From Armatimonadota bacterium (GTDB taxonomy: Bacteria > Armatimonadota > UBA5829): a stretch of DNA of 64,000 bases. The notes below the pieces were generated by a model, which did no database searches, was not told the origin of the DNA, and was given only the letters and a program-made list of their open reading frames with translations. The stretch covers positions 2,445 through 66,444 of the forward strand of contig JAAYKE010000049.1 of NCBI GenBank assembly GCA_012522575.1, in the 5' to 3' direction. Below are positions 39,762-54,646 of the stretch, piece after piece; position 1 is the stretch's first letter; each line of letters starts with the position of its first letter. Position numbers and translations under genes: made by a program.

Positions 39762-40523
39762 ATGCATAGTACCCTGTTTAAGATATTTGGATTTCCGGTG
39801 CACTCCTATGGCCTGATGATGGTCGTTGGGTTTGCGCTTGGGCTGTGGCGCGCGAGCAGAATATCGAAGAAGCGATATGGAATTGAGCCGGATCGGGTCT
39901 ATGATATGGCCCTGACGCTGCTGATCAGCGGCATAGTGGGATCGCGAATCGTATTTGTGCTCATTAACCCGGACACGGAGAGCTGGAAGGATATGCTGTC
40001 GGTGTGGCAGGGCGGACTAAGTTTCCACGGCGGGCTGATCAGCGCGATGGTTGCAGGAGCTATTTATGCGCGTATTGCGAAGCTGAATTATTGGGTTTGC
40101 GCTGATCTGTTCTCCCCTTCGCTGACGATTGGCTATGCCTGCACTCGAATCGGATGTTTTTTGAACGGCTGCTGCTATGGCGCGCCCACCAATCTGCCCT
40201 GGGGAATGAGATTCCTCGATGAAGGCTTCCTGACTCCGCCCTCTCACCCCACCCAACTCTATGCTGTCGGCGCAAATATTCTGATCCTGTGGGCGTTGAT
40301 TAGGTTGGAGAAGCTGCGCCGAAAGCCCGGTTTCGTATTTGTCGGATATGTCGGGCTTTACTCCATATACAGATTTCTGATCGAGTTTTTGCGCAGCGGA
40401 TATACCGCCAAACTGCTCGCGTTCGGGCTGACTGAGGCGCAGTGGGTAAGCCTGGCGGCCATATTAGCCTCGGCTGTTTTGATGCTCACGGTGTATCGCA
40501 ATCCCCTCAAATCTTCACAATAG
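39762..40523 (+). CDS. lgt: Prolipoprotein diacylglyceryl transferase
   Basis: 'GFPVHSYGLMMVVGFALG', 'GGLSFHGGLI', 'R.GCFLNGCCYG' Lgt signature blocks. Confidence 0.85.
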   Translation: MHSTLFKIFGFPVHSYGLMMVVGFALGLWRASRISKKRYGIEPDRVYDMALTLLISGIVGSRIVFVLINPDTESWKDMLSVWQGGLSFHGGLISAMVAGAIYARIAKLNYWVCADLFSPSLTIGYACTRIGCFLNGCCYGAPTNLPWGMRFLDEGFLTPPSHPTQLYAVGANILILWALIRLEKLRRKPGFVFVGYVGLYSIYRFLIEFLRSGYTAKLLAFGLTEAQWVSLAAILASAVLMLTVYRNPLKSSQ

Positions 40524-40723: not shown

Positions 40724-41227
40724 ATGAATGTCAGACAACGCAGACTCAACTCGGATTTCCAGGCGCTCATCGAGCTTTCCCGCGACAATCCGCTTATTGA
40801 TTTTGATATATTAAGCAACAACAAGGACAGATATGTAGTGATTTATCGATGCAGAGGTCTGCATTGGCTGCCGGGTCGTCCGCGTCCATCCGTTGCTAAT
40901 CTGCATCGTATGGAAATTTATCTTCACCTGGACTACCCGCGCCTGCCTCCGCAACTGCAGTGGCTGACCGATATTTTCCATCCCAACATCCTGCCTCCTT
41001 CGATGAACGGCGGGGTATGCATAGGCAAATGGACCCCGGCGGAATCTCTGGACAGGCTGGTGGTGCGTCTCGGGGAGATGGTGCAGTATAAAAACTATAA
41101 CACAAAGGATCCCATGAACCTGCAAGCGGCCGCTTGGGCGGAAGAGAACTCCTCGTCGCTGCCCGTAGACAACAGGCCGCTGACAAATCATTCTAACCCT
41201 TTGGACATAGGCATAGGAGCGCAATAA
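40724..41227 (+). CDS. Ubiquitin-conjugating enzyme (E2/UBC)-like protein, copy 1
   Basis: 'DIFHPNILPPSMNGGVCIGKWTPAESL' matches the UBC active site (HPN, then the catalytic Cys, then the downstream Trp/Pro); the N-terminal 'RRLNSDFQAL' matches UBC helix 1. Confidence 0.7.
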   Translation: MNVRQRRLNSDFQALIELSRDNPLIDFDILSNNKDRYVVIYRCRGLHWLPGRPRPSVANLHRMEIYLHLDYPRLPPQLQWLTDIFHPNILPPSMNGGVCIGKWTPAESLDRLVVRLGEMVQYKNYNTKDPMNLQAAAWAEENSSSLPVDNRPLTNHSNPLDIGIGAQ

Positions 41228-41228
41228 A

Positions 41229-42167
41229 ATGTCATTTCGGTGTGGAAGGTATTTGCTGTTAGTTATTTGTTTGGGTGTTTTGTTTATCAGTTGCGTGTTC
41301 GCCGACGCCAGAGATGTGGTGGATAAAGTGGGCGATGCAGTGGTAAGCATAGAATGTGATACTCCCGCCGGCGTTTCGGGAGGTTCGGGCGTATTAGTAA
41401 ACCCGGACGGCTACATTCTGACCAACGCTCACGTCATTGATAAAGCAAAAAAAGTGCGGATTAAAATGACGGATGAGAAGCAGTTGAGCGCGAAGGTGGT
41501 GGCTAAAGACAACGAAAATGACCTTGCGATCATCCGCATCAATATCCGAAACCTGCCGGTGGCGGTTATCGGCAACGCGAAGAACGCCAAATCCGGGGAC
41601 AGCGTGGTTGCGATAGGCAGTCCCAAAGGGCTGGATCATACCGTCACCAGCGGGATTGTATCCAAAAGCGACAGAGTAATAAACGGACGCCATTATATTC
41701 AAACCGACGCAGCCCTCAACGAAGGCAACAGCGGTGGCCCGTTGCTGAACGAAAATGGGGAAATTATTGGCATCAATACAATGATTCATAAGAATGCCAA
41801 TCAACTTGGGTTTGCGATTCCCATAAATACGGCTTATGAACTGCTGAACAAAAATAATGTGGCTGTGCTCACGCCGCTGGATAATGAAGAACTTGCAAAG
41901 ACCAAATTGCCAGCCAACAAGACAGAGGGAGCAGGCAGACCATCGACCAAAAAGCCGGGCTGGATTTTATATGTGATTTTGGGAGTGGTTGCGGCGGCTG
42001 TTGCAGCAACCGTTGTGATACTGATTAGAAAGCGCAAAGCGCGAAAGCGGCAGGGAGGTAATGAGGGAGCGCTGGATATCACCCTGCATCCAAAGCTGGC
42101 ACAGGCTCAGCCGGCTGGCCAGGATAACGCCGACGACGGCGATGATTTGGAAATAGAACTGAAATAG
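41229..42167 (+). CDS. Membrane-anchored trypsin-like (S1/HtrA-type, no PDZ) serine protease with an acidic C-terminal tail
   Basis: 'ILTNAHVI' (His), 'NDLAIIRI' (Asp), 'GNSGGPLLN' (Ser) triad blocks; TM helix 'WILYVILGVVAAAVAATVVILI'; ends '...DDGDDLEIELK'; the start lies 1 nt after the E2 stop. Confidence 0.7.
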   Translation: MSFRCGRYLLLVICLGVLFISCVFADARDVVDKVGDAVVSIECDTPAGVSGGSGVLVNPDGYILTNAHVIDKAKKVRIKMTDEKQLSAKVVAKDNENDLAIIRINIRNLPVAVIGNAKNAKSGDSVVAIGSPKGLDHTVTSGIVSKSDRVINGRHYIQTDAALNEGNSGGPLLNENGEIIGINTMIHKNANQLGFAIPINTAYELLNKNNVAVLTPLDNEELAKTKLPANKTEGAGRPSTKKPGWILYVILGVVAAAVAATVVILIRKRKARKRQGGNEGALDITLHPKLAQAQPAGQDNADDGDDLEIELK

Positions 42168-42192
42168 AAACAGAGAGGAGATACACAAGATT

Positions 42193-42462
42193 ATGGGAAA
42201 AGTGGATGTCACGATTATTGACGCTACGGGAAACAAGGAGCAGCAGGCCTCGCTGCCGGACGATGCGCCGGTGAGGAGAATTATCGCCAGGCTGACGGAG
42301 ATGATGCAACTGCCGGCAACCGATCCGGGCGGACAGATGTTGAGCTACAAGTTTCAGCATAAGGCGTCCGGCACGCAGCTTACCGATGATCAGACCCTTG
42401 CCGATGCAAACGTAAAAGATGGGGACGTGCTGCGGATGCTGCCGGAGATTACTGCAGGATGA
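42193..42462 (+). CDS. Ubiquitin-like beta-grasp protein (Ubl) with a C-terminal Ala-Gly
   Basis: 89 aa; ends '...LRMLPEITAG*'; the stop overlaps the E1 start (ATGA); RBS 'GAGAGGAG' upstream. Confidence 0.6.
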   Translation: MGKVDVTIIDATGNKEQQASLPDDAPVRRIIARLTEMMQLPATDPGGQMLSYKFQHKASGTQLTDDQTLADANVKDGDVLRMLPEITAG

Positions 42463-43730
42463 TCGACGATACAGATGATCTCGGCATTGAACTGATCGGC
42501 GACGACGCCGTTGCGCCGGATGCCCAACAGCCGAAACAGGCGGACGAACAAAAGTTGGTGTCAACCGAGGAGGAAGAGGATCGCTACAGCCGTTTCCGAC
42601 TGATTCCGTGGTGGGATCAGGAGTTGCTTAAACGGACGCGCGTGCTGGTAGTTGGAGCGGGTGCGCTCGGCAATGAGATTCTCAAAAATCTTGCCCTGCT
42701 GGGAGTCGGCAAGATATTTCTGATCGATTTGGATCGGATAGAGAACTCCAACTTGTCCAGGTCGGTGCTTTACAGGCTGTCGGATGAGGGATCCGGCAAA
42801 GCGGAAGTAGCTGCGCGGTCGGCGATGGAGATCAACCCTGACATTACCGTGCATCCGTTTATGGGCAATATCGTGCACGATGTGGGCCTGGGTGTGTTCA
42901 GATCAATGGATGTGGTGATCTGCGGACTGGATAATCGAGAGGCGAGGCTGTGGGTCAACCAGTGCTGCTGGCGGGTGAACAGGCCGTGGATCGACGGAGC
43001 TATAGAGGTATTGCACGGCATAGTGCGAGTGTTCGTCCCGCCTGATGGCGCGTGTTATGAATGCACAATGAACGACACCGACTATGAGATGCTGCGGCGG
43101 CGAAAGTCCTGCGCTCTGCTGACCAGAGAACAGATGCTGGAAGGCAAAGTGCCGACCACGCCAACCATATCATCGGTAATCGCGGGAATACAGTGTCAGG
43201 AGGCCGTAAAACTGGTTCACGATCGCCCTGAGCTACCGGTGCTTGAGGGAAAGGGATACTTCTTCAACGGATTGACCCATGACTCATTTGTGGTGAATTA
43301 TACCCGCAAGCAGGATTGTTTGAGCCATGAGACCTTTGAAAACATCAAGGAGATGGACTGGCGGGCGCAGGACCTGACCTTGAGGCAGGCTCTCGAACAT
43401 ATTCGAGCGGATCTCGGAGACGAAGCGGCTCTGGAGCTTAACCGCGAAATTGTATATGAGATGACCTGTGAGCAATGCGATGTCTCGGTTCCGACTTCGA
43501 TGCTGCTGGGGAAGATGACCGAAGCCGATGCCGCTTGCCCGAAATGCCGCGAAGTGATGGCTTTGGAGATGTGTCACAGCGTCTCCGGAGACGAGGCGTT
43601 TGTTGACAAGACCTTCGCCGAAATAGGGCTGCCCGCATTTGACATAGTTGCGGGCAGGTGCGGGATGGAAGAAAGGTACTATGAGTTGAGCGGTGACAGG
43701 GCAAAGATGCTCGGCGACATCGCGGATTGA
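42459..43730 (+). CDS. E1-like ubiquitin-activating enzyme (ThiF/MoeB/HesA family) with a C-terminal CxxC zinc module
   Basis: 'RVLVVGAGALGNEILKNLALLGVGKIFLIDLDRIENSNLSRS' adenylation Rossmann fold; C-terminal 'CYEC', 'CEQC', 'CPKC' pairs; N-terminal acidic 'DDTDDLGIELIGDD'. Confidence 0.8.
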   Translation: MIDDTDDLGIELIGDDAVAPDAQQPKQADEQKLVSTEEEEDRYSRFRLIPWWDQELLKRTRVLVVGAGALGNEILKNLALLGVGKIFLIDLDRIENSNLSRSVLYRLSDEGSGKAEVAARSAMEINPDITVHPFMGNIVHDVGLGVFRSMDVVICGLDNREARLWVNQCCWRVNRPWIDGAIEVLHGIVRVFVPPDGACYECTMNDTDYEMLRRRKSCALLTREQMLEGKVPTTPTISSVIAGIQCQEAVKLVHDRPELPVLEGKGYFFNGLTHDSFVVNYTRKQDCLSHETFENIKEMDWRAQDLTLRQALEHIRADLGDEAALELNREIVYEMTCEQCDVSVPTSMLLGKMTEADAACPKCREVMALEMCHSVSGDEAFVDKTFAEIGLPAFDIVAGRCGMEERYYELSGDRAKMLGDIAD

Positions 43731-44707
43731 GCAAAAAAAGAACGGGTGGGAAGGCTATGACTGCAGAGGATAGACACAATGATGCAGATATTGAGCTTAT
43801 TGTAACCGAAAATCGGCCCAGCGGCGCGATGGATTGTCCGGACATCCGGATCGACCCTGAAGTAGATAAGCAGATACAGACCTTCGCAAAAACAGACACC
43901 GGCAAAGAGTTGGGAGGAGTGCTGCTTGGGGAGCTTATCGCTGATTCCGTAATCCCGCAGGTGAGAATCAAGGCCGCTATTGAGGCCAAACATACGGAAG
44001 CCGTTCAGACAAGCGTCAAATTCACCCACGATACCTGGGACGACATCAACCGGGTCAAGGATGAAAAATATCCGGATATGCGGATAGTCGGGTGGTTCCA
44101 CACTCATCCCGGCTTTGGCATATTCCTGTCGCGGTGGGATATGTTTATCCAGGAAAACTTCTTTAATCTGCCGTGGCAGGTGGCCTATGTGGTCGATCCT
44201 GTCGGTAAAACGAGCGGGTTTTTCCGGTGGGAAAACGGCAAAGTTGCTCAGGTCGGCAAGAAAAAAGAAATTGCGCCTCCTATTGAGGTCACGCTTCCGA
44301 AAGTGGAAAAAGTCGGCAGGTCATTTAACTGGGGAACGGTATTCTCTGTTGTCTTGAACGTTGCGCTGATTGCGGCCGTGGTATATCTTGGCCTGTTCAA
44401 GCCTCCGGAGGTTCGGGTTGAGGAGAAAATCGTAACCGAAGAAGCGCCGGTTAACGTTGAGCGGCAATCGACAACTGAGATGACCGAGCAAGCGCAGACG
44501 TGGACGGAATATGTTGTGCAGAGGGGGGATTCTTTCTGGTCGATAGCCAAGAATTGTTATGGAGAGGGTGAATTATATACCGCTATCCAACTCTTCAACA
44601 ATATGCCCGATAAAAAGGTACTGCACACAGGGGAGCGCTTGCGGCTGCCGTCCAAAGAGATCGCCGTTACGATGCTTGACAAGAGGATCAGACCAGGGAT
44701 TGATTAA
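43727..44707 (+). CDS. JAB/MPN (JAMM) metalloprotease fused to a TM segment and a C-terminal LysM domain
   Basis: 'E..AV' glutamate plus 'WFHTHPGFGIFLSRWD' (HxHx7Sx2D); TM helix 'VFSVVLNVALIAAVVYLGLF'; LysM 'YVVQRGDSFWSIAKNCYG....AIQLFNNMPDKKVLHTGERLRLP'. Confidence 0.75.
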   Translation: MSKKRTGGKAMTAEDRHNDADIELIVTENRPSGAMDCPDIRIDPEVDKQIQTFAKTDTGKELGGVLLGELIADSVIPQVRIKAAIEAKHTEAVQTSVKFTHDTWDDINRVKDEKYPDMRIVGWFHTHPGFGIFLSRWDMFIQENFFNLPWQVAYVVDPVGKTSGFFRWENGKVAQVGKKKEIAPPIEVTLPKVEKVGRSFNWGTVFSVVLNVALIAAVVYLGLFKPPEVRVEEKIVTEEAPVNVERQSTTEMTEQAQTWTEYVVQRGDSFWSIAKNCYGEGELYTAIQLFNNMPDKKVLHTGERLRLPSKEIAVTMLDKRIRPGID

Positions 44708-45301
44708 ATGCGTTCGTCTGTCGGCAAAACGTGTCCATATTGCCAGTATCCCATCAAGCCGGATGAGCCGGTAATCGAGTGCAGTCATTGCGGCATGCCG
44801 CATCATAGGGCTTGCTGGGAATATAACCGCGGGTGTACGACTTATGGCTGCAGCGGAGTGCAGCGGCATGGCAGATTGCCCGTTGCAGGCAATCAGCAGG
44901 GGTCTGATCATATCGACCTTACAGACATAATGCACGAGCCGGAACAGCCGACTCCATACTATCCGCAACAACCGGGATACCAGCCCGCGGAATCGGAAGC
45001 TCCGCTTTTAGCGACATCGAACTCATTAGCGGGCAGCGGAGGAGTGATTGGAGCGATAATCGGAGGATTTATCGGTCTGAGCGGCGGGTGCGCAGGCTGC
45101 ATTCCCGGCGCAATTTTCGGTTTTATCATAGGCGCCTTGATCGGCGGGTTTATGCTCTATGGCATTATAATAACTGTGACCAGCGGGATTGGGTATATGT
45201 TCGGATCAGTCGGCGGGCAGGACGCGGCTATCGGCGGAGCGGCAATCGGGCTGATAGTCGGAGTCATAATAATCGTAATCGGTTGCTGCAAGCAGGCATG
45301 A
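44708..45301 (+). CDS. PHD/RING-like binuclear zinc-finger protein (paralog 1) with a glycine-zipper membrane C-terminus; candidate E3
   Basis: N-terminal 'CPYCQYPIKPDEPVIECSHCGMPHHRACWEYNRGCTTYGC' (C-x2-C-x12-C-x2-C-x3-HH-x2-C-x6-C-x4-C); the C-terminal half is GxxxG-rich and hydrophobic. Confidence 0.55.
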   Translation: MRSSVGKTCPYCQYPIKPDEPVIECSHCGMPHHRACWEYNRGCTTYGCSGVQRHGRLPVAGNQQGSDHIDLTDIMHEPEQPTPYYPQQPGYQPAESEAPLLATSNSLAGSGGVIGAIIGGFIGLSGGCAGCIPGAIFGFIIGALIGGFMLYGIIITVTSGIGYMFGSVGGQDAAIGGAAIGLIVGVIIIVIGCCKQA

Positions 45302-45339
45302 CGATTCATACAAGATCAAGATAGCAGGAGGTTTGATCT

Positions 45340-45939
45340 ATGGCTAATACAGTGGCCGGACCCGCAATAGCCGGCAAGACATGTCCGTTTTGTCAGACTC
45401 CGATAAAACCAAATGAACCTGTGCACATTTGTGACCAGTGCAATATCCCGCATCACCAGGATTGCTGGCGGGAAAATGGCGGCTGCACGACTTTCGGGTG
45501 CAGGGGAGCCAATGCAGCACGCCCAATCATCCCGCAACGAGCTTACGACGATCACTCTCAACCAGTCCAACAGCAGCCCTATTTTCAACCAAATCAGCAA
45601 CCCGGATACGGTAATCAATATCAACAACATTATCAATATGCGCCCGATGTGCCGCCTGAAATAATGGGCAAGCTCAACTGGGGAGCATTTCTTTTGCCTT
45701 TCTTTTGGGCGATAGCCCACAATGTGTGGATCGGACTCTTAATACTGGTTCCCTACGTTGGATGGGTTATGCATTTTGTTCTGCTGTTCAAGGGCAACGA
45801 ATGGGCGTGGAGAAATCGCAGATTCCAGAGCGTTCAACATTTCAACGAAGTGCAAAATGCCTGGGTGATAGCGGGACTCATATTGTTCTTCGGGTCGATA
45901 GTGTTCGTTTTTATATTAATGTCACTGGCGTACGCTTAG
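45340..45939 (+). CDS. PHD/RING-like zinc-finger membrane protein (paralog 2); candidate E3
   Basis: 'CPFCQTPIKPNEPVHICDQCNIPHHQDCWRENGGCTTFGC' has the same ligand spacing; a Gln/Pro/Tyr-rich linker; two or three C-terminal TM helices. Confidence 0.55.
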   Translation: MANTVAGPAIAGKTCPFCQTPIKPNEPVHICDQCNIPHHQDCWRENGGCTTFGCRGANAARPIIPQRAYDDHSQPVQQQPYFQPNQQPGYGNQYQQHYQYAPDVPPEIMGKLNWGAFLLPFFWAIAHNVWIGLLILVPYVGWVMHFVLLFKGNEWAWRNRRFQSVQHFNEVQNAWVIAGLILFFGSIVFVFILMSLAYA

Positions 45940-45962
45940 TTTAGTCAAGTTAGCTGAAATCC

Positions 45963-46847
45963 ATGACCGGCAAGCTCTGTCCATATTGTCAAAATCGTAT
46001 TACGTCGGGGAGCGCGGTTACTGCCTGCCCTGCCTGCAACACTCCGCATCATAGCGAGTGCTGGAACTACAATGGCGGGTGCACGACTTTTGGGTGCCGA
46101 TATATGCCCGGAGCAAGTGCGCATTCTTCAGCACAAGCATACGATGCATACGATGACCTGGATATAGAGCTTTATCCTCCGGGTGGCGGGTATCCGCCTT
46201 CGCGAAGCGGTCATGTGGAGCAGCAACACTACCGGCAGAGCCAGCCCAGGTCAAAGAATTCGTGGTTGTGGGCGATTATTTCGATAACTGCGTTTCTGGG
46301 CATGGTCGCCATTATGATAAGCACGACATTCAATAACCCGACGAATGCATCTTACATGAAACGCGCCATAAAATGCGTCAATCAAGAGCAGTATGAAACT
46401 GCAAAAACCTACTGTAATCTGGCTATTGAACAGGACCCCGAGTGTATGGAGGCATATTATCTGAAGGGCACATTGCTGCTGGAGCTTTGCAATTGGCGGC
46501 ACAACAACATTGAGGTGTGGATGAACCAGGCCAGACACGGTAACACTGAGCGGTTCGATGCGGCAGATGAGTGCTTTAGGCAATGTATCAGGTTCGCGCC
46601 AACTGATACGACTGAATATAACAAATATCTGAAGCTGGATAACTCTGAGATTGTGAGCCGGGCGTATGTCCACCTGGCGATGACGGCAACTCTGCGGATG
46701 CTGGCTAATTATGATGCCAATCGTATGAACGACGCGCTACTATGGGCCAGAATCGCGCGGCAATATCTTAACAAGGTGACATATTACCACCTTGGAACGG
46801 AGTATTACGAACTGGCAGATGCCCTGCAAAAGTTTGTGCCCGGTTAA
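45963..46847 (+). CDS. PHD/RING-like zinc-finger membrane protein (paralog 3) with a C-terminal TPR-like helical domain; candidate E3
   Basis: 'CPYCQNRITSGSAVTACPACNTPHHSECWNYNGGCTTFGC'; one TM helix 'WLWAIISITAFLGMVAIMI'; TPR-like 'YETAKTYCNLAIEQDPECMEAYYLKGTLLLE'. Confidence 0.55.
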   Translation: MTGKLCPYCQNRITSGSAVTACPACNTPHHSECWNYNGGCTTFGCRYMPGASAHSSAQAYDAYDDLDIELYPPGGGYPPSRSGHVEQQHYRQSQPRSKNSWLWAIISITAFLGMVAIMISTTFNNPTNASYMKRAIKCVNQEQYETAKTYCNLAIEQDPECMEAYYLKGTLLLELCNWRHNNIEVWMNQARHGNTERFDAADECFRQCIRFAPTDTTEYNKYLKLDNSEIVSRAYVHLAMTATLRMLANYDANRMNDALLWARIARQYLNKVTYYHLGTEYYELADALQKFVPG

Positions 46848-46897
46848 GATACGCAGCGGCTTAATATACTTGATCAACACAACTGGAGACGATATAT

Positions 46898-47467
46898 ATG
46901 AACCCTAGAATGATGCGTCTGAATGCCGATTACGAGAAGATCAGGACGGAATTTCTCGGCCATAGATATGTTACGGTCGAACCGATGGGTTCGCTGCCGC
47001 CTGAGAGATATAGAATCACATATCGAGTGCCGGGGCTGCGATGGGATAGCTTCGGCAACAGGCCGATTGTCGTCAACGAACATGTCGCGGAGATATATCT
47101 TCACGCTGATTACCCGCGTCAAACGCCAAAAGCTACCCTCAAAACCCCGATTTGGCACCCGAACTTTGGCACATATATCTGCATTGGAGATCACTGGGCG
47201 GCAGGAGAGACGCTGGTGGATATAATCGTGCAGATTGGGGATATGATTCAATATAAGTCCTACAATCCCAAGAGTCCGCTCAATGCAAATGCCGCGATAT
47301 GGTCGATGCAAAACCAGCATCTCTTCCCGGTAGGGACGATCGATATCCTGCAGCCGGAACCGGAGGTGGAGTTTGGCGGCGCAAGCGCAGATGTTGAGGA
47401 GGATGACCTTGGAATTGTGCTGGGGCCAAGCTCCGATAACGATGATCTGGAGATAGAATTCAAATGA
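46898..47467 (+). CDS. E2/UBC-like protein, copy 2, with an acidic C-terminal tail
   Basis: 'PIWHPNFGTYICIGDHWAAGETL' HPN...C motif; N-terminal 'MRLNADYEKI'; ends '...DNDDLEIEFK'; RBS 'GGAGACG' upstream. Confidence 0.7.
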   Translation: MNPRMMRLNADYEKIRTEFLGHRYVTVEPMGSLPPERYRITYRVPGLRWDSFGNRPIVVNEHVAEIYLHADYPRQTPKATLKTPIWHPNFGTYICIGDHWAAGETLVDIIVQIGDMIQYKSYNPKSPLNANAAIWSMQNQHLFPVGTIDILQPEPEVEFGGASADVEEDDLGIVLGPSSDNDDLEIEFK

Positions 47468-48231
47468 CACGGCCAGATGACGCCGGCAATCAAAAAATTG
47501 AAGTGACACTGGACGAGCCGGTCGATACGCCTGAGCAGGGATCAAATAGACCGCAAGGGGAATCGGAAGGCGCGATTCCACCGGGAGCCGTTGAGGTCTA
47601 TATAGACAAGGCTGTGCTTGAATCGACCTGGGAGCATGTGCTCACAAACAGGCGCACCGAGCTTGGCGGAGTGCTGATTGGGCGGCGCAGGGAAGCGGAC
47701 GGAACCTTTACGCACATCACAAACTGGCTTGACGCGAGGCACACGACCACCACCTCCGGCAGCCTGACATTCACACACGATGCCTGGGCCGATATAGCGC
47801 AACGAATGAGCGATATGGATCCGGATGACAAAATTGTCGGATGGTATCATTCTCATCCCGGCCACGGCGTTTTTATGAGCGGCCAGGATAGATTTATCCA
47901 TAATAACTTCTTTGCCAATGACTGGCAGTGTGCGCTGGTGATTGACCCAATTAAAAACGACAGGGGATTGTTTCAATTAGTCAACGGACAGATTGTGCGC
48001 ACCGGGTATTGGTGTGTGCCCGACAAGCCGGTGTATGTGACTCAACAAGATAGTAAGCCCGTTGCCGTGGAAACGCCGCCGCAACAGGATGGGTTGCACG
48101 AAGCGGCAAGCGATTTTCTGGAAGCGGGAGATCATATCGCATCGGGAATAGAGAAATTCGTAAAATATTCTGCACAGCGCATACGCAATTCTAAAGGCCC
48201 GCTTGGCCGGAACATCGACAAAAAGGCGTAA
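47464..48231 (+). CDS. JAB/MPN (JAMM) metalloprotease, copy 2 (soluble)
   Basis: 'ELGGVLIG' glutamate plus 'WYHSHPGHGVFMSGQD' (HxHx7Sx2D); the start overlaps the E2 copy-2 stop (ATGA). Confidence 0.75.
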   Translation: MTRPDDAGNQKIEVTLDEPVDTPEQGSNRPQGESEGAIPPGAVEVYIDKAVLESTWEHVLTNRRTELGGVLIGRRREADGTFTHITNWLDARHTTTTSGSLTFTHDAWADIAQRMSDMDPDDKIVGWYHSHPGHGVFMSGQDRFIHNNFFANDWQCALVIDPIKNDRGLFQLVNGQIVRTGYWCVPDKPVYVTQQDSKPVAVETPPQQDGLHEAASDFLEAGDHIASGIEKFVKYSAQRIRNSKGPLGRNIDKKA

Positions 48232-48258
48232 GACATCGCGCTATAAGGAGCGACTGAG

Positions 48259-49344
48259 ATGAGCAACGACAAAATTGAAATCAGCTTTGACGATGAGGAC
48301 GAGCAGCCGAAGCCCCGGGAAAAGAAACTGATCATTACGAGCGATGACCTGCTCAACGTGCCCGACCCGCAGCCGCTTGCCGCACAGAAGCCTGTGGGGT
48401 TTGATGCGCCTGCGGATTCATATATGCAGTATCAGAAGAAACCATCGGCCTCAGCGGTGTCCGGTCACAGTATTATGCAGGGAGCAATCGCCGGGCTTAT
48501 TGGCGGTTTTTTGGCGTGGGCTGTCACTGAGCCTTTATTTGGGGACAATGTGGCCAGCAGCAATTTTGTCAGTATCATCGTTAAAATGGGTTTTTTCGGC
48601 GGACTGATCGGAGGGCTGATTGGCGGTTGCCTGGGAGCTGCGGATGGAGTTGTTTCAGGAGTTGCTGAAAAGGCGTTCAAGGCCGGCGCAATTGGCTTGG
48701 GGATCGGAATGGGCGGCGGTTTTCTGGGCGGAGTTTTTGGGCAGATTGTCTATGGCGCTCTGCTGCAATCGGGAGAACCCGGACTTGGCACATATATGGT
48801 GGCGCGAACAATCGGCTGGTCGGTGGTGGGTGTGTTCGTTGGGTTGGGACAGGGAGTAGGACGAGGCTCCGGCAAGCGCGTGACTAACGGTTTGCTGGGA
48901 GGTCTGGCTGGCGGTTTTATTGCAGGAATTCTGTTTGACCCAATTTCGGTTTTATTTGCTACCGGATTGTTGAGCCGACTCTTTGGAATCACGATACTCG
49001 GCGCTGCTGCCGGGCTGGCGGTCGGATTGGTGGAGGAAATGCGAAAGCAAGCCTGGTTATCTATAGTCAAAGGGCCGCTTGCGGGCAAGCAGTTTATTTT
49101 ATATGAACAAAGAACGAGAATTGGCAGTTCTCCCAAGTGTGAAATTAGTCTGGTAAAAGACCCGCAGGTGATGCCGGAACACATTGCCATAGATAATCAC
49201 GGCAGCAGTTTCAGCCTCAGCGCTCTTATGGGACAGGCGCTGGTGGACGGACGACCGGTACATCAAACCCGGCTGCAGGCGGGGAATATGATCACACTCG
49301 GTTCGACGTCGCTGCTCTTTGAGGAGAAGGCGATCGGTCAGTAG
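48259..49344 (+). CDS. Membrane protein with a glycine-zipper TM region and a C-terminal FHA-like domain
   Basis: N-terminal acidic 'KIEISFDDEDEQ'; GxxxG-rich hydrophobic core 'GAIAGLIGGFLAWAV...GGLIGGLIGGCLGAADG...GIGMGGGFLGGVFG'; C-terminal 'GKQFILYEQRTRIGSSPKCEISLVKDPQVMPEHIAID.....L.....ALVDGRPV....L..GNMITLGSTSLLFE' matches an FHA fold pattern. Confidence 0.55.
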   Translation: MSNDKIEISFDDEDEQPKPREKKLIITSDDLLNVPDPQPLAAQKPVGFDAPADSYMQYQKKPSASAVSGHSIMQGAIAGLIGGFLAWAVTEPLFGDNVASSNFVSIIVKMGFFGGLIGGLIGGCLGAADGVVSGVAEKAFKAGAIGLGIGMGGGFLGGVFGQIVYGALLQSGEPGLGTYMVARTIGWSVVGVFVGLGQGVGRGSGKRVTNGLLGGLAGGFIAGILFDPISVLFATGLLSRLFGITILGAAAGLAVGLVEEMRKQAWLSIVKGPLAGKQFILYEQRTRIGSSPKCEISLVKDPQVMPEHIAIDNHGSSFSLSALMGQALVDGRPVHQTRLQAGNMITLGSTSLLFEEKAIGQ

Positions 49345-49380
49345 ATATCTGACTAAGGAGCGATAAGGCCATTAACGCAG

Positions 49381-49500
49381 TCATCGGGAAAATCTGCCCT
49401 TTTTGCCAGACTCCTATAAAATCGGAGGACGATTGGGATTCGGATGACGACGACGATGGTTGGGATTCCGAGGAATATGATGATGACTGGGATTACTGAT
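49381..49500 (+). pseudogene. Fragment of a fourth zinc-finger paralog fused to an acidic Trp-rich tail (no ATG start)
   Basis: The in-frame translation '...GKICPFCQTPIKSEDDWDSDDDDDGWDSEEYDDDWDY*' carries only the first CxxC of the paralog motif; the upstream in-frame stop leaves no canonical start. Confidence 0.4.
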
Positions 49501-49526
49501 TTGGTTATAGGGTTGGGAGGGCTAAT

Positions 49527-50102
49527 ATGATCGCGCCTAGGCGCATTTTGGGCCTTATCTGCGGGGTGTGCGCGGTGATATTGGTCGTGGGATGCAGCGG
49601 TGGTAATTCATCCGCGCCTGCCGAGGGAAATCGGCCCCAGTCGCTGTTTAGCGCAGATTTGGCCGAACGACTGGACAGACACGATGCGCAAACCGGGGAT
49701 GTGCAGGCGAGTTTGATCTGGAATAACTACAACGACCTCGACTTGCACATTATTGATCCGAATGATGAACGGATATATTTCGCGCACAAACGGGCCAGGT
49801 CAGGAGGGGAACTCGATGTGGATATGAACGCGCGCGGTCGGGAATCTAATGAGCCGGTCGAAAACATCTATTTCCCGCAAGGCGGAGCGCCCGCCGGACG
49901 CTACAGGGTCTACGTTCATTACTATGCCAAGCACGACTCCGATAACCTCACCCCGTTCAGATGCGAAGTGCTGGTCAAAGATGAGGTGCATAAATTCTCC
50001 GGGGAGATGTCCAAAGGCGATCCGATCCGACTGATTTATGAATTCACACTGGAAGGCAAGCAGGAAAAACCAATTCCACTGCTGTTTTCACCGAGAAGAT
50101 AG
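49527..50102 (+). CDS. Lipoprotein of unknown function
   Basis: 'MIAPRRILGLICGVCAVILVVGCSGG' lipobox; conserved-looking 'LIWNNYNDLDLHIIDPNDERIYF....GGELDVDMN' beta-rich domain; RBS 'GGGAGGG' upstream. Confidence 0.5.
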   Translation: MIAPRRILGLICGVCAVILVVGCSGGNSSAPAEGNRPQSLFSADLAERLDRHDAQTGDVQASLIWNNYNDLDLHIIDPNDERIYFAHKRARSGGELDVDMNARGRESNEPVENIYFPQGGAPAGRYRVYVHYYAKHDSDNLTPFRCEVLVKDEVHKFSGEMSKGDPIRLIYEFTLEGKQEKPIPLLFSPRR

Positions 50103-50229: not shown

Positions 50230-50934
50230 TCAATAATTAAATGCCAGTGCTTTTCCAAAGCCCGCGTAAGGCACCTTCACAAAGAACGCCCCGGCAGCAT
50301 AGTAGCTGACGGCATATTGCTCTATCAAAAAAGTGACCCCGGCAGGAGTGATAACGAACTCCTTGGTCAGTTTGTCGCTGTCGGCGGTCACTGTCCCATC
50401 CTGCACCCAGGTCGCGTTTTGGTTGCTCTGAAGCTGCGCATAGACCCTCTCGCCCGCCAGCTTTTTTGCGTCCACTTCGGGTTTGAACAGATCTTGCAGG
50501 GCCAGCAGTTTCGGTTTACCGTTTATAACCCCGTAGTTCCTGCCGTGGAAGTAGGTCATGCCATGTGCTCCGCCGGTATAGGTATACTCGGTGAAGTATA
50601 GGCTGATGAGGTCGGGCCGGGCGATGGATACGGCAGGCTCAAGCACATAGGAGTAACGCAACGGAATATCTTTTCCCTCAAAGTCTTTCTTCATCTGGGC
50701 AAGGTCTTTTCGAAAAGCTTGAAGCCGTTCACCGGCGAACTTCAGCAGGTCAGCGTTTGCCGTTTTTATTACCGTGTCTGAGCCGGCAAACTGCGGATAA
50801 GTTACCTTTATCTCGGCATCTCCAGTTCTTATTGAAGCTATCTTTACGCCGAGCTTCTCCTGAGCTATAGACATCTGAAGCCCGGCAAGCGTAAGCACCA
50901 TACAAACCAAAGCTGTGCTAAATATGCGCTTCAA
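50230..50934 (-). CDS. DUF3298/DUF4163 (RsiV-like) domain secreted protein
   Basis: Signal peptide; 'TYTGGAHGMTYFHGRNY' is the DUF3298 hallmark. Confidence 0.55.
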   Translation of the reverse strand: MKRIFSTALVCMVLTLAGLQMSIAQEKLGVKIASIRTGDAEIKVTYPQFAGSDTVIKTANADLLKFAGERLQAFRKDLAQMKKDFEGKDIPLRYSYVLEPAVSIARPDLISLYFTEYTYTGGAHGMTYFHGRNYGVINGKPKLLALQDLFKPEVDAKKLAGERVYAQLQSNQNATWVQDGTVTADSDKLTKEFVITPAGVTFLIEQYAVSYYAAGAFFVKVPYAGFGKALAFNY

Positions 50935-51225: not shown

Positions 51226-52422
51226 TTATTGAGACAACTCCAAAACCAGCAACTCCATAATCATTCGCGGATCCTCCACGTGTGCGCCCCCATCAGCCCC
51301 TTTTAGCATAGAATCGGCCCTGGCAATCGCATCGAACCCGTTTATGAGATGATCGCGCGACATAAGCGATGCCTGCGATCTGAGACGGTTTTCCTGCCAA
51401 CTCTGCCTGCTCAGGATGTCGAGCAGATTCGGAGTAGATGGCAGAAATGACAGCAACTCCTGCGGAACCGAGCCTTTTTGAAAGTATCTGACTCCGGCCT
51501 TTGAAAGCATTTTATACTGCCATATCAATCTGAACGTGCGAGCAATGTTCGCCAGCACCTTGGGAGCCTCGGATTCCGGTCGGTCGCCGGTCTCAAATAA
51601 TTCATCCAGAAATCGCATAGCCTCTCTGGGTTTTCGAGCGCCAATCGCATCCACCAGCTTGAATACCTTCTCCTCCGGAGTCTCACAGACCACCCTGGCG
51701 ACATCGGCAGCCTTGATTGCAGAGCCGTCACCGGAATAATCGATCAGCTTTTGAGCCTCAGAAGTCAACACCGAAAAATCTGCGCCTACACGCTGAATGA
51801 ATGCAGTGAGAGTCTTTTCATCGATTTTTTTGCCCGCTGCGGCAAATATAGAGGCGGCGTGTTTGCGAGCGCTGTCGGTTCGAGCACGACCCTTTTCCCC
51901 GCCAACCTTTACTACGCTGCCCACCTTGCGAATGGCCCTGGAAATATCCCCGATAACCTCATCGCCCTTTTTAATCCTGCCCCCCGTTTTGTCCGATGCA
52001 GGAGTGACCAATATCAAACACGCGCTCGAAGGCGTATCAGGTAGCTGCCGTGCAAGTTTCTTCTGTTCGGCCTCATCCATCTTATTGGCGAACTTGACCA
52101 GCACAACTCTTTTGGTAGAAGAAAACGGAGGGATGGCAAGCCCTGCCATAATGCGATCCGAAGTTGCCGAATCGCCCTCCATCTGCTCGAAGTCGAAGTC
52201 CGCGAAATCAGGCGCGACAAGATCGCCGAGCAATTTTTCAAGCTCCTGCTGTTTGCGATAATCATCGTCCCCCGCGAACAGATATGCGCGAGGCTGGTTG
52301 GCAGATTTGTCTTTCGAACTCATAGCATACGCATTATCGCACTCCAGGCCACAATTGGCAACCGTTTCCAATAACCCAGCAATTTTACCTGTTTTGGCAG
52401 GTAATAAAGGTATTTGGGGCAT
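51226..52422 (-). CDS. holA: DNA polymerase III subunit delta
   Basis: N-terminal 'YLFAGDDDYRKQQELEKL', then 'PPFSSTKRVVLV', then 'CLILV': an LxxG(E/D)-type clamp-loader delta layout; about 400 aa. Confidence 0.55.
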   Translation of the reverse strand: MPQIPLLPAKTGKIAGLLETVANCGLECDNAYAMSSKDKSANQPRAYLFAGDDDYRKQQELEKLLGDLVAPDFADFDFEQMEGDSATSDRIMAGLAIPPFSSTKRVVLVKFANKMDEAEQKKLARQLPDTPSSACLILVTPASDKTGGRIKKGDEVIGDISRAIRKVGSVVKVGGEKGRARTDSARKHAASIFAAAGKKIDEKTLTAFIQRVGADFSVLTSEAQKLIDYSGDGSAIKAADVARVVCETPEEKVFKLVDAIGARKPREAMRFLDELFETGDRPESEAPKVLANIARTFRLIWQYKMLSKAGVRYFQKGSVPQELLSFLPSTPNLLDILSRQSWQENRLRSQASLMSRDHLINGFDAIARADSMLKGADGGAHVEDPRMIMELLVLELSQ

Positions 52423-52681: not shown

Positions 52682-53665
52682 GTGAACGAATCTATTTTTC
52701 TCGTTGAACCCCAGGATGCCGGCAAGCGGCTCGACGTGTATCTGGCGGAGCGGATTCCGGAGATTTCTCGGTCTCATATACAAAAACTCATCGCCAGAGC
52801 TTGCGTGACGGTGAACGGATCGACGGCCAGATCAGGGTATAAGATCCAAACCGGAGAAGCTCTGCGCGTGGAAATACCTCCCCCTGAACCCGCCGATATC
52901 AGCCCGGAGCAAATACCGCTGGACGTCGCCTACGAGGACGAACATATCATCGTCATCAACAAACCCAAATCCATGACCGTGCACCCTGCGCCGGGCCACA
53001 GAAGCGGCACCCTTGTCAACGCGGTGGTTGCGTATTCCGATGACCTGTCCGGGATTGGAGGCACGGAGCGGCCGGGGATCGTTCATAGACTGGATAAAAA
53101 CACCTCCGGGCTGCTGGTTGTAGCCAAGACCGATGCGGCGCATTCATCGCTGCAGGCTCAGATTCAGAGCCGAAGCGCCGAGAGAAAATATCTTGCCCTC
53201 GTCTGGGGGTCGACTAATTTCAACGAGGCCGTTGTCGATGCTCCCATAGGACGTCACCCGACCGACCGTCAAAAGCAGGCGGTGATAAAAGATACCGAAC
53301 GCTACACCGCTCGCGAGGCTATCACTCACTTAAAGGTCCTGGAAAGGTTTGACGGATTTACTTTCCTTGAGGCAAAACTCGACACCGGACGCACGCATCA
53401 GATTCGCGTCCACTGCGTATTTATCGGTCATCCGGTAGTCGGCGATCCCACCTACGGCGGCACAAAACGCGCTATGCCATCATCCTATGGAAAGCTTGAT
53501 GCGCCCGATCTATTGCAACTTATAGAAGCTCTGCAAGGGCAGGCTCTGCATGCATATTCCCTGTCGTTTGATCATCCCGCAACCGGCAAGCGATTGAGCT
53601 TTGAAGTTCCGATGCCATCGGATACAGCGGCGTTGGTCGATTGGCTGAGGAATTGGACCCAATAA
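52682..53665 (+). CDS. rluD: RluA-family 23S rRNA pseudouridine synthase (RluD-like) with an N-terminal S4 domain
   Basis: 'GIVHRLDKNTSGLLVVAKT' catalytic Asp block; N-terminal S4-like 'RLDVYLAE...SRSHIQKLI'. Confidence 0.8.
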   Translation: MNESIFLVEPQDAGKRLDVYLAERIPEISRSHIQKLIARACVTVNGSTARSGYKIQTGEALRVEIPPPEPADISPEQIPLDVAYEDEHIIVINKPKSMTVHPAPGHRSGTLVNAVVAYSDDLSGIGGTERPGIVHRLDKNTSGLLVVAKTDAAHSSLQAQIQSRSAERKYLALVWGSTNFNEAVVDAPIGRHPTDRQKQAVIKDTERYTAREAITHLKVLERFDGFTFLEAKLDTGRTHQIRVHCVFIGHPVVGDPTYGGTKRAMPSSYGKLDAPDLLQLIEALQGQALHAYSLSFDHPATGKRLSFEVPMPSDTAALVDWLRNWTQ

Positions 53666-53755: not shown

Positions 53756-54646
53756 CTAATCAGTAGTTGTCGGACTAGCAGAGCCGTAGTAGTATGAATT
53801 GCGATGCCACGGACACCGGCAAGGCGTATTTGCCCTATGTGTAGTTCCGCCGGCATACGTGTCGTGCAATCCTCGTATTTTTAGGATCTCTTTCTTTGGA
53901 ATCCACTTAGTGTGGCCATCTGCGAACGAACAGGTCGTGCCTTCCCAGTGAATATCGCCGGGATCGTCGAATGACGCGTAGCTCCACCACTGGAAGAACC
54001 CGTCGTTCTGGCCATTCAAGCCGGCTTTTGTGCCGCGTTTTTCGTGTATCAGGAACATAATCTGCCCGGACCGGCCTGCCGTAGCAGCCGCAAGTTTAAC
54101 GGTAAACGGCGCAGCTTGCTTGTCGCAGAGGTCCTCATTGACCGCATAGCTGACCCCGAAACCTGCCGGCAAAGTAGACGCCTGATATTCAGTCGCTCCT
54201 TTAGGCCAGGATGCCTTATCCATCCAACCTATTCTGCGGCCGCCATAATAGCAAGGAATGTTCATATCCGATGGGCAGTTGAACAAGGCTATGCCTCTGG
54301 CATATCCGCCGATAGCCAGCGATCCTTTGCGGGGGTCACAAGGCACTATGCTTGTGTCTCCGCCGGCAACTCCTCTGTCGAAGGTGGAGCCTGTCCACTC
54401 TATCGTTGCTCGACCGGTGTAGTTCGCCATTCGGCTTCTGGAGGAAACCGGCAGAAATCCGTCATTGTCATCAGCATAGCTGAACATCGCCAAAGTGAGC
54501 TGTTTGAGGTTGGAGGTGCAGGTAGCCTGTCTGCCGCGCTCTTTCGCGTTCAGGAACACAGGAAAAAGAATGGCTGCTAAGATAGCAATAATTGCAATTA
54601 CAACCAACAGCTCAATGAGTGTGAATCCTCGCTTGGTCATTATCAA
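53756..54646 (-). CDS. Prepilin-type N-terminal cleavage/methylation domain protein with DUF1559 (H-X9-DG family pseudopilin)
   Basis: '[26 protein letters not shown]' class III signal peptide; 'CTSNLKQL..A...[10 protein letters not shown]' DUF1559-like. Confidence 0.7.

Follow-up and report, generated by a model that had tools for sequence, protein, structure and literature searches.

The open reading frame at positions 48259–49344 of the forward strand, named GFHA, is a real gene for a non-enzymatic inner-membrane protein, which is a constant part of a little-studied bacterial operon for a ubiquitin-like protein (Ubl). The window, that is, the whole stretch of DNA that was analysed, comprised 64,000 nucleotides from an Armatimonadota bacterium. 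The frame opens with ATG, a start codon backed by the conserved N-terminus of the homologues, and its 361-residue product was composed of three parts, a disordered acidic tail (residues 1–60), a glycine-rich membrane domain of six helices (residues 63–261), and a C-terminal FHA domain (residues 265–356). The AF2 model of the whole protein had a pLDDT of 84 and a pTM of 0.73. Because 530 homologues were found in a 90%-clustered database, and the membrane part alone, at a threshold of E ≤ 1e-3, matched 2,320 cluster representatives, the glycine-rich region is not a product of chance. According to the first-pass annotation, the protein is glycine-rich, lies in the membrane, and ends in an FHA β-sandwich. 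This description was borne out by Pfam matches above the cut-offs and by superposition of the AF2 model, and the glycine-rich strings quoted with it were present in the translated protein.

The membrane domain (48445–49041, forward strand) was delimited by conservation and the AF2 model. Its helices were formed by residues 63–94, 103–133, 136–168, 176–200, 205–233, and 236–261, and were modelled confidently in a compact arrangement (pLDDT 91, pTM 0.87). Glycine accounted for 49 of the 199 residues (24.6%), and 27 GxxxG and 16 overlapping GxxxGxxxG patterns were located in a hydrophobic context. The invariant residues E91, R183, W187, D227, and R240 were positioned towards the outer helix ends. 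The positive-inside charge distribution pointed to an N-in/C-in topology. Of the 136 cluster representatives that ranked highest, 126 had an FHA domain directly after the membrane domain, and the two domains are an obligate pair.

The membrane domain is represented by no Pfam or NCBIfam model. No Pfam family was found at E ≤ 1 for residues 1–270 or 58–266, which ruled out membership of GFHA in the glycine-zipper families of Pfam, and Gly-zipper_YMGG (PF13441) was matched, weakly, by no more than 3 of the 30 family members compared. GFHA shares hydrophobic segments with repeated GxxxG with the families Gly-zipper_Omp (PF13488), Rick_17kDa_Anti (PF05433), and Gly-zipper_YMGG; however, these families are short modules of one or two helices, whereas GFHA contains a domain of ~200 residues with six helices and with E, R, W, D, and R as invariant residues. 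The label "glycine zipper" was accurate for the GxxxGxxxG pattern but not for family membership. Instead of a short zipper or a flexible linker, the region was a conserved and confidently modelled domain. A fold search with this domain gave no match in the PDB or BFVD, to a transporter or to any other protein. A rhomboid- or Derlin-like identity with six transmembrane (TM) helices was also considered and was dropped, with no fold or sequence match.

The zinc-finger protein encoded at 44708–45301, RING protein 1 of the cassette described below, had been thought to end in the same glycine-zipper module, but the two regions were not homologous. BLASTP of GFHA against this protein gave an E-value of 1, the membrane-domain HMM found nothing in it with the --max option even at E ≤ 10, and hhalign of the membrane domain with its tail gave a probability of 0.9% over 12 columns. 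The likeness is compositional, since both regions contain ~25% glycine.

The FHA domain (49051–49326, forward strand) was identified by Pfam, by profile comparison with GarA, and by superposition of the AF2 model. The best Pfam match was Yop-YscD_cpl (PF16697) at 3.6e-12 (46.8 bits, cut-off 33.2), and FHA (PF00498) was matched at 4.6e-6 (27.4 bits, cut-off 20.7). A profile of the GFHA family found GarA at 5e-13. When the model of the domain was compared with OdhI and GarA by Foldseek, the structures were aligned with TM-scores of 0.88–0.92 and r.m.s.d. values of 1.1–1.4 Å. The pLDDT was 86–95 over residues 261–350 and 81 in the last strand, and the model formed the eleven-stranded β-sandwich of the FHA fold, the point on which the earlier assignment had been staked.

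The signature residues G289 and H308 of the FHA fold were retained, whereas the residues that contact phosphothreonine (pThr) were substituted in GFHA, as they were in no less than 90% of the subfamily. In the alignment with GarA, the arginine after the glycine was replaced by S290, with Ser in 41 of 45 sequences, and the asparagine of the β6–β7 loop by G325, with Asn in 2 of 45 sequences. The serine of the SxxH motif was replaced by M305; the family has Ala, Leu, or Met at this position, and Ser was outside the six commonest residues. Thus, of the phosphopeptide-binding FHA pattern proposed earlier, the fold stood and the pThr-contacting residues did not. Judged by these residues, the FHA domain of GFHA appears phosphate-blind, with the fold kept and the canonical pThr residues gone. 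Neither the window nor any of the Ubl-type loci contained a kinase or PP2C motif in a regex scan. Gating of GFHA by phosphorylation, as had been suggested, is unlikely because the Arg/Ser/Asn triad was lost and these motifs were absent.

The cassette upstream of GFHA is encoded on the forward strand, and its genes were assigned by Pfam, supported by motifs in several proteins. It contains E2 number 1 (UQ_con with an HPN...C motif; 40724–41227), a membrane trypsin-like protease (41229–42167) whose cytoplasmic tail ends in DDLEIELK (42141–42164), and a YukD-family Ubl (42193–42462; Pfam YukD at 2e-14) that ends in ...EITAG and is the likely ligand of GFHA. These are followed by an E1 (ThiF; 42459–43730) with the N-terminal sequence DDLGIEL (42474–42494), and by a JAB deubiquitinase-like protein (43727–44707), which continues into a TM helix and then LysM. 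Three Prok-RING_1 proteins come next, of which RING protein 1 has the glycine-rich TM tail compared above, RING protein 2 (45340–45939) has TM helices, and RING protein 3 (45963–46847) has a TM helix, TPR, and a linker with DDLDIEL (46152–46172). E2 number 2 (UQ_con; 46898–47467) has the C-terminus DDLEIEFK (47441–47464). The second JAB gene (47464–48231) overlaps that of E2 number 2 and lies immediately upstream of GFHA, at a distance of 27 nt.

The E2 and JAB motifs in the translations of the window read FHPN...VCIGKW, WHPN...ICIGDHW, HTHPGFGIFLSRWD, and HSHPGHGVFMSGQD. An E1, E2 proteins with HPN...Cys, RING proteins, and JAB proteins with HxH...S..D were found together in one operon, and the Ubl ended in ...EITAG both in the window and in 13 loci. 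From these sequences, the cassette is predicted to conjugate the Ubl to proteins. As a whole, the cassette is membrane-centred.

GFHA recurred in all sufficiently complete YukD/E1/E2/RING/JAB operons examined, and it is a core gene of these operons at no fewer than 20 loci in several phyla. This recurrence confirmed the earlier placement of GFHA in a Ubl-conjugation cassette, within which it is seated. Among the loci seeded with GFHA, 19 of 44 contained the operon. When the Ubl was used as the seed, GFHA was present in L046 and L051, and the other five contigs ended before it. Further operons with GFHA were found at L045 and, in the compact order Ubl-E1-JAB-GFHA-RING-E2, at L053 and L054. L053 had been considered as a "minimal E2-less operon"; six-frame analysis revealed uncalled RING and E2 genes downstream, and this candidate was rejected. 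At L001, a real locus, a triad of trypsin, GFHA, and YukD occurred without E1 or E2; its Ubl still ends in TAG, and the conjugating enzymes may therefore be encoded elsewhere. This locus was left out of the evidence.

About half of the fetched relatives had no adjacent Ubl genes, for example those at nine loci with common neighbours, several of them from Zipacnadia MAGs. Therefore, the domain pair serves, or once served, a function that does not depend on an adjacent Ubl operon. In distant relatives (L034, L035, L038, L039, L042, and L043), the six-helix domain followed by FHA was located beside vWA, PP2C, and Ser/Thr kinase genes. These relatives have the domain pair in common with GFHA, but they keep the pThr residues GR/SxxH that are replaced in GFHA. 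They also have a zinc ribbon and a further, fully canonical FHA domain, the acidic tail was absent, and no Ubl genes were nearby.

The acidic tail of GFHA carries two motifs. Motif A (residues 5–12, KIEISFDD; 48271–48294, forward strand) is a copy of an acidic β-strand motif found across the cassette, and its counterpart in the homologues reads IEIS or LDIS. Motif B (residues 24–35, LIITSDDLLNVP; 48328–48363, forward strand) was identified by conservation among the homologues, with I26 and L31 at least 90% conserved. The DDLEIELK-type motif was located in the disordered ends of the protease tail, the E1, both E2s, both JAB proteins, RING proteins 1 and 3, and GFHA. It was ~10-fold enriched in the cassette relative to the remaining window (p = 2e-4), and its positions were preserved in orthologous cassettes from other phyla. 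At L045, L053, and L054, the motif was basic instead (IRISW), and the charge of the Ubl was changed at β1/β2/α1 (K3, T7E, E16R, S20E, R28D/N, and R33V); this covariation comes from three loci, possibly of one lineage, whose Ubls also differ at many other positions. The FHA domain was considered as a candidate receptor of the acidic motif. Its position 305 was Glu in three basic-motif systems, but the covariation with the motif was weak because other basic-motif relatives have Ala, Ser, or Gln. Where relatives lie away from Ubl operons, and in the kinase/vWA clusters, the neighbouring proteins had no motif at their termini, and this comparison therefore gave no discrimination between receptors.

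It is possible, as a tentative reading, that the acidic motif corresponds, in bacteria, to the SUMO-interacting motif (SIM) and would bind the YukD-type Ubl non-covalently, with the FHA protein as a membrane receptor having two motifs and a phosphate-independent FHA domain. The SIM is a short β-strand with acidic flanks that binds SUMO at β2/α1. SIMs are found on the SUMO E1, E3s, proteases, and receptors (PMC12687455). The cassette motif resembles them in its hydrophobic β-strand core, acidic flanks, presence in many pathway enzymes, and tandem copies, and its charge changes were matched in the Ubl at β2/α1, the region where SIMs bind SUMO. However, the Ubl of the cassette is YukD-like and not SUMO, and its binding to the motif is putative.

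GFHA may be the membrane platform or receptor, as a core subunit, of the YukD-type Ubl conjugation system, a reading that we hold with as much confidence as doubt. Alongside GFHA, this system has the Ubl, the E1 with two E2s, three RING E3s in the membrane, a pair of JAB peptidases, and the membrane protease. The six glycine-rich helices of GFHA would pack into a compact membrane domain whose two ends face the cytoplasm, with a conserved polar cluster near the outer leaflet. The juxtamembrane FHA domain would be the first cytoplasmic binding device and, since its pThr pocket is lost, is proposed to bind its partner without phosphorylation. The disordered acidic tail, with two copies of the β-strand motif, would be the second. 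Both devices might hold the Ubl, free or conjugated, at the membrane and thereby, as we propose, the Ubl-handling enzymes too. GFHA would thus provide the platform through which the Ubl system acts on or senses the envelope.

The pairing of a YukD-family β-grasp protein with a membrane-tethered FHA domain is shared with YukB/EssC of type VIIb secretion, and EssC-type FHA domains, too, are not known to have the pThr-binding residues. In Bacillus subtilis, YukD binds the juxtamembrane FHA domains of YukB non-covalently, as seen by cryo-EM, and controls the assembly and organisation of the membrane complex (PMC12637312). The precedent is an analogy, because no YukB/EssC FHA domain was among the sequence matches of the GFHA FHA domain even at E ≤ 10. 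YukB carries a pair of FHA domains at its N-terminus, two TM helices, and FtsK ATPase domains, whereas GFHA has six TM helices, one C-terminal FHA domain, and no ATPase. Furthermore, YukD of B. subtilis is not conjugated (PMC1779556), whereas the Ubl of the cassette ends in Gly and is accompanied by E1, E2, RING, and JAB proteins.

Other envelope proteins with an FHA domain were also compared. The actinobacterial FhaB/FipA (Rv0019c), and FhaA with MviN, resemble GFHA in that a TM segment precedes a cytoplasmic FHA domain at the C-terminus, in an envelope-related context; FhaA was among the fold matches of the GFHA FHA domain, and FhaB_Rv0019c was a weak NCBIfam match. However, FhaA and FhaB bind pThr produced by PknA/PknB and have one TM helix, whereas GFHA has six helices, lost pThr residues, and Ubl enzymes as neighbours. 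The YscD/SctD structures 4a0e and 4d9v of type III secretion matched the FHA fold with a TM-score of 0.75, in keeping with the best Pfam match and with the location of an FHA fold next to a membrane. The FHA fold of YscD is not known to rely on pThr binding. In contrast to GFHA, YscD carries its FHA domain at the N-terminus, one TM helix, and periplasmic ring-building domains, and type III secretion genes were absent at the GFHA locus. The cassette itself resembles the prokaryotic RING/E2/E1/JAB operons with YukD-like Ubls that were reportedly predicted by Burroughs, Iyer, and Aravind in 2011 (Mol Biosyst 7:2261), with a proposal of Ubl conjugation, and Prok-RING_1, UQ_con, ThiF, JAB, and YukD are all present here. 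Our literature search found no experimental work on YukD-type E1/E2/RING/JAB operons.

The earlier proposal of an abortive-infection membrane effector was not upheld. In its broader form, the glycine-zipper helices would oligomerize into a pore or damage the membrane on release by Ubl conjugation or deconjugation, with the FHA domain as a regulatory handle. The 16 overlapping GxxxGxxxG patterns agree with this improbable reading, as do the last or nearly last position of the gene in the operons of many loci, the lack of an enzymatic or obvious sensor domain in GFHA alone among the cassette proteins, and the arrangement of the upstream JAB gene, which overlaps E2 number 2 and is separated from GFHA by 27 nt. 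However, PADLOC-DB had 0 families for GFHA, and the neighbours gave generic E1, JAB, and protease similarities only. BLAST searches, which mask low-complexity sequence, turned up plasmid relatives of neither the membrane domain nor the Ubl, and phage relatives of the membrane domain were likewise missing. The GC content of the cassette was the same as that of its surroundings, and relatives stood alone in conserved chromosomal, non-defence neighbourhoods or in kinase/PP2C/vWA signalling clusters. The compact six-helix model with invariant charged residues, outside the Pfam glycine-zipper families, is also unlike a short amphipathic zipper. GFHA is similarly unlikely to be the main substrate, in which the Ubl would be conjugated to conserved cytoplasmic lysines and removed by the JAB proteins, switching an activity of the membrane domain. 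The nearly invariant K263, K277, K293, and K300, at the junction of the membrane and FHA domains and on the ligand face of the FHA domain, would suit such a role, but they are equally explicable as ligand-binding or membrane-interface residues. GFHA always co-occurs with E1, E2, RING, and JAB, and membrane-anchored RING E3s would adjoin it; such a role could go together with the platform model and does not exclude it.

A phospho-signalling adaptor, whose FHA domain would read pThr made by a Ser/Thr kinase with its gene elsewhere, in the manner of FhaA, FhaB/FipA, or GarA, is very unlikely. The best sequence matches of GFHA were the pThr-binding GarA, OdhI, and FhaA, and distant relatives adjoin kinase and PP2C genes; the weak NCBIfam matches to OdhI and FhaB_Rv0019c scored 20 bits against cut-offs of 125–200. 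Against the adaptor stand the replacement of the canonical Arg, Ser, and Asn in GFHA and most of its subfamily, the N-terminal motifs of the family, which have no conserved Thr, and the lack of kinase and PP2C motifs in the regex scan of the window and the Ubl-type loci. We consider hardly probable a transport or secretion machine with type VII logic, in which the six-helix domain would be the channel. The YukD-family Ubl, the membrane-tethered FHA domain, and the membrane-anchored serine protease do occur together, and type VII systems unite YukD/EccD, the FHA-bearing YukB, and a mycosin protease (PMC1779556, PMC12637312). However, the Pfam scan of the cassette proteins found no FtsK-type ATPase (EssC/YukB) and no WXG100 protein, the fold search gave no transporter match, and the terminal Gly of the Ubl is conjugatable, with E1, E2, RING, and JAB proteins encoded beside it.

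Among prokaryotic systems, bacterial operons with a full set of E1, E2, RING, and JAB are the nearest relatives of ubiquitination in eukaryotes. The YukD-type systems include an unannotated six-helix domain, with ~2,300 clusters and no Pfam model or solved fold, and an FHA domain apparently rebuilt for phosphate-independent binding. The proteins of the cassette share a candidate docking motif, the charge of which shifts together with that of the Ubl at three loci. The motif, the FHA domain, and the Ubl are thus testable handles on how a prokaryotic Ubl signal is recognized. They bear on whether SIM-like reading predates eukaryotes, given that a 2025 review knows of no prokaryotic system with a SIM-binding groove so far (PMC12687455). 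If the motif does act as a SIM counterpart, ubiquitin-like modifications would have, in the FHA membrane protein, their first prokaryotic "reader", and SIM-like reading would tie the conjugating Ubl systems to the YukD–FHA pairing of type VII secretion.

The ORF at 48259–49344 (+) opened with ATG and encoded a protein of 361 residues, here called GFHA, with an acidic N-terminal tail, a glycine-rich membrane domain and a C-terminal domain of the FHA type. The N-terminus, MSNDKIEI..., was kept in the homologue alignment. A search of a 90%-clustered protein database returned 530 homologues from Armatimonadota, Bacillota, Planctomycetota and candidate phyla, and the named ones were annotated merely as "FHA domain-containing protein". 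Residues 63–261 contained 49 glycines in 199 positions (24.6%), with 27 GxxxG and 16 GxxxGxxxG motifs, and every glycine-rich string quoted in the first-pass annotation was found in the translation.

Residues 58–266 were modelled by AlphaFold2 from the family alignment as six long helices (pLDDT 90.9, pTM 0.87). Lysine and arginine were concentrated in loops 130–141, 198–210 and 258–268 and were absent from loops 90–104 and 166–178, a distribution consistent with N-in/C-in topology, which would put both the acidic tail and the FHA domain in the cytoplasm. Residues E91, R183, W187, D227 and R240 were invariant in the homologue alignment, and by the helix limits of the full-length model all would lie near the outer helix ends. 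A profile built on the membrane domain only matched 2,320 cluster representatives at E<=1e-3, of which 229 remained at E<=1e-30. Among the 136 best-scoring representatives, FHA directly followed the membrane domain in 126, and most of the remaining 10 are probably fragments. The model, the profile counts and the FHA pairing thus define a distinct, widespread and unannotated domain, an obligate partner of FHA, rather than a linker or a short glycine zipper. GFHA fell outside the glycine-zipper families, which the earlier annotation had likened it to, and belonged neither to PADLOC systems nor to type VII secretion.

The same module had been thought to end RING1, the first zinc-finger protein of the cassette (44708–45301), in which a Prok-RING_1 finger is followed by a hydrophobic tail with 26% glycine. 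This tail matched the GFHA membrane domain at E=1 in BLASTP, RING1 gave no match to the HMM of the domain in an unfiltered search at E<=10, and hhalign of tail against domain returned a probability of 0.9% over 12 columns. Homology was detected by none of the three comparisons, and the likeness is compositional.

The C-terminal 100 residues of GFHA passed the curated Pfam cut-offs for both Yop-YscD_cpl (3.6e-12) and FHA (4.6e-6), and the family profile matched GarA and OdhI at 5e-13. In the AlphaFold2 model of GFHA (pLDDT 84, pTM 0.73), the predicted β-sandwich superposed on OdhI and GarA with TM values of 0.88–0.92 and an rmsd of 1.1–1.4 Å. By all available tests, of profile and of predicted structure, the C-terminus is an FHA domain, as had been proposed; a predicted structure lacking the sandwich would have refuted that proposal, and this outcome was not seen. 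The residues for phosphothreonine binding were judged by aligning the family to GarA, the canonical phosphothreonine reader, over 45 diverse members. The structural residues of the FHA signature were retained (G289 in 45/45, H308 in 41/45). The arginine following the conserved glycine was replaced by serine in 41/45 (S290 in GFHA), the serine of SxxH by alanine, leucine or methionine (M305), and the asparagine of the β6–β7 loop was present in only 2/45 (G325 in GFHA). In place of the lost residues, the family has its own conserved loop motifs, IGSSPKC[DE]I and KDxxxxPxH. When the window and all Ubl-type loci were searched with crude regular expressions, neither the Hanks-kinase signature HRDxKxxN nor the PP2C signature DGHGG turned up, although such genes may lie elsewhere in the genome. 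GFHA thus has the FHA fold, but not the phosphopeptide-binding pattern suggested for it.

GFHA lies at the close of a co-directional cassette (40724–50102), which encodes, in order, an E2, a trypsin-like protease, a YukD-family ubiquitin-like protein (Ubl) ending in EITAG, an E1, a JAB-TM-LysM protein, three Prok-RING_1 membrane proteins, a second E2, a second JAB, GFHA and a lipoprotein. The HPN...Cys motif of the E2s and the HxH...S..D motif of the JABs were intact in the translations. With a Gly-ending Ubl, E1, E2, RING and JAB, the cassette has the make-up of a putative YukD-type conjugation operon. Of the 44 database loci (L numbers) retrieved with the GFHA family, 19 contained these Ubl-system genes, mostly in a similar gene order with GFHA at or near the 3′ end; they came from Armatimonadota, Syntrophomonadaceae, Gelria, Zipacnadia and Sumerlaeota. 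Reciprocally, among seven loci retrieved through the Ubl, the family was present in both that reach the operon end (L046, L051), and the other five contigs end before it. The planctomycete-type loci L053, L054 and L055 showed the compact order Ubl-E1-JAB-GFHA-RING-E2. This recurrence in GFHA-seeded, Ubl-seeded and compact loci makes GFHA a core component of the Ubl system. Duplicate or vWA-fused copies of the gene are found in some operons (L023, L045); L045, retrieved through a GFHA relative, has two copies.

In the Bacillota operon of L023 (6022–9156), the two paralogues stand one on each side of the protease gene. Database gene calls would give L053 an operon devoid of E2; this reading was discarded, as genes for a RING-like protein and a TM-anchored E2 lie uncalled at 11114–13568, downstream of the GFHA homologue. 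The trypsin/HtrA-like protease (41229–42167) begins with a signal sequence or anchor and, after a C-terminal TM helix, ends in a 45-residue cytoplasmic tail with two copies of a short motif, a layout suggesting an extracytoplasmic protease wired to the cytoplasmic Ubl system. A TM helix joins the JAB peptidase at 43727–44707 to a peptidoglycan-binding LysM domain, and another joins the RING protein at 45963–46847 (RING3) to TPR repeats. Envelope-related genes were seen about the cassette: lgt (39762–40523), the DUF2135-like lipoprotein (49527–50102), conserved beside the operons of L004 and L005 as well, and, encoded on the opposite strand, a PdaC/DUF3298 protein (50230–50934). Further on, ORFs 51226–52422 and 52682–53665 look, by translation, like holA and rluD, and ORF 53756–54646 (-) has a prepilin-type N-terminal methylation motif; L001 is also flanked by proteins with N_methyl/SBP_bac_10 matches.

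A short motif of acidic β-strand type, acidic-[LIV][DEG][IV][DETQ][LF], was present in a disordered end or linker of nearly every cytoplasm-facing cassette protein. It occurs as LDITL in the protease tail and DDLEIELK at its very C-terminus (42141–42164), DDLGIEL at the N-terminus of E1 (42474–42494), LDIGI at the C-terminus of the first E2, DDLGIVL in the second E2 and DDLEIEFK at its extreme C-terminus (47441–47464), DIELI and IEVTL in the two JABs (with a site at 47497–47511), HIDLTDI in RING1, DDLDIEL in RING3 (46152–46172), and KIEISFDD (48271–48294) and LIITSDDL in GFHA. In the cassette the strict motif occurred at about 10 times the rate of the remaining 40 ORFs of the window (1.84 vs 0.19 per 1000 residues, Poisson p = 2e-4). 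Its positions were conserved in orthologous cassettes of other phyla (L001, L003–L006, L010, L014, L017, L019, L021, L023), even in L001, where only the protease, GFHA and Ubl are adjacent. GFHA relatives kept the two N-terminal copies inside or outside operons. From sequence alone, the pattern resembles SUMO-interacting motifs, whose carriers are SUMO E1, E3s, proteases and receptors and whose binding site is the β2/α1 groove (PMC12687455).

The Ubl (42193–42462) was unusually conserved, with 66–90% identity to that of the window across the metagenome loci retrieved with it. In the window and 13 loci E[IVLP]TAG was always present, with TAG as the exact C-terminus or followed by 1–6 extra residues (A, Q, YM, RGIAP, YLNSVM); in L053 a longer read-through followed. 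These extra residues imply processing by a JAB peptidase in some lineages. A basic version of the motif, DDKIRISWDD, was present in 21 of 244 full-length family sequences compared, and the planctomycete-type compact operons had the basic forms IRISW/IRITL. The basic-type Ubls (L045 4640–4912, L053 7506–7790 and L054 7485–7754, with the neighbouring genes) differed from all acidic-type Ubls at K3, T7E, E16R, S/T20E, R28D/N and R/K33V. On β1, β2 and α1, positive charge was lost (K3, R28, R33) and negative charge gained (E7, E20). Motif and Ubl thus show what looks like a charge swap, in three operons of perhaps one lineage. FHA column 305, the former Ser position, was Glu in L045, L053 and L054; other basic-type proteins had Ala, Ser or Gln at this site.

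Outside Ubl operons, nine loci, several from Zipacnadia MAGs, had common neighbours including a GAF response regulator and pilus-type ATPases. Distant relatives, with the architecture six-helix domain-FHA-zinc ribbon-FHA, were found next to vWA, PP2C, Ser/Thr kinase and additional FHA genes, retained GR and SxxH, and had no acidic tail. The remaining relatives were on contigs that end early. By this comparison, the branch that lost the phosphothreonine residues also lost its kinase/phosphatase neighbours and acquired the acidic tail. In L034 (3587–13390), L035, L043 and L044 the distant relatives are clustered with a vWA protein, a Ser/Thr kinase, a PP2C phosphatase and three more FHA proteins, and such clusters may represent the ancestral, phosphorylation-dependent setting of the six-helix–FHA pair. 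An N-terminal vWA domain preceded the six-helix domain in L037 (9161–11017), L041 (5259–7124) and L045 (8001–9836); in L037 and L041, a "GS"-type FHA was followed by an acidic C-terminal tail with GIEF/VIIEM-like motifs.

The proposal that GFHA is a pore or membrane-perturbing effector draws solely on the glycine motifs and the gene position. GFHA had no PADLOC match, no plasmid or phage relatives were found, relatives occurred in non-defence contexts, the GC content of the cassette was in line with that of its surroundings, and the flanking genes in the window were ordinary housekeeping genes such as lgt, all of which argues against such an effector. GFHA may itself carry the Ubl, for which the conserved K263, K277, K293 and K300 speak; this is compatible with a role as membrane platform, and both may hold.

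Systems of RING/E2/E1/JAB with YukD-like Ubls were reportedly predicted in prokaryotes by Burroughs, Iyer and Aravind in 2011, and the cassette corresponds to this type; a literature search found no experimental study of such operons. As far as checked, four points are new: the recognition of the six-helix domain as a separate, FHA-linked family, a putatively phosphate-blind FHA in the Ubl-linked branch, GFHA as a core gene of the operon, and a cassette-wide motif that seems to co-vary with the Ubl.

To our knowledge, B. subtilis YukD is the sole experimentally characterised member of the YukD family. Cryo-EM showed this protein bound non-covalently to the FHA domains that the membrane ATPase YukB carries next to the membrane; YukD holds them in a fixed conformation, which allows assembly of the type VIIb secretion core (PMC12637312). 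By this analogy and from its own anatomy, GFHA would serve the Ubl system as a membrane platform or receptor, a role to which, with all its binding partners, we give roughly an even chance. Free or conjugated Ubl would be held by the FHA domain and the pair of N-terminal motifs; these, with the copies of the motif on the enzymes, would gather the machinery for conjugation and deconjugation at the membrane. There the machinery would neighbour the membrane RING E3s as well as the protease, LysM and TPR proteins, which have extracytoplasmic domains, in a Ubl system that appears to span the membrane and face the cell wall.
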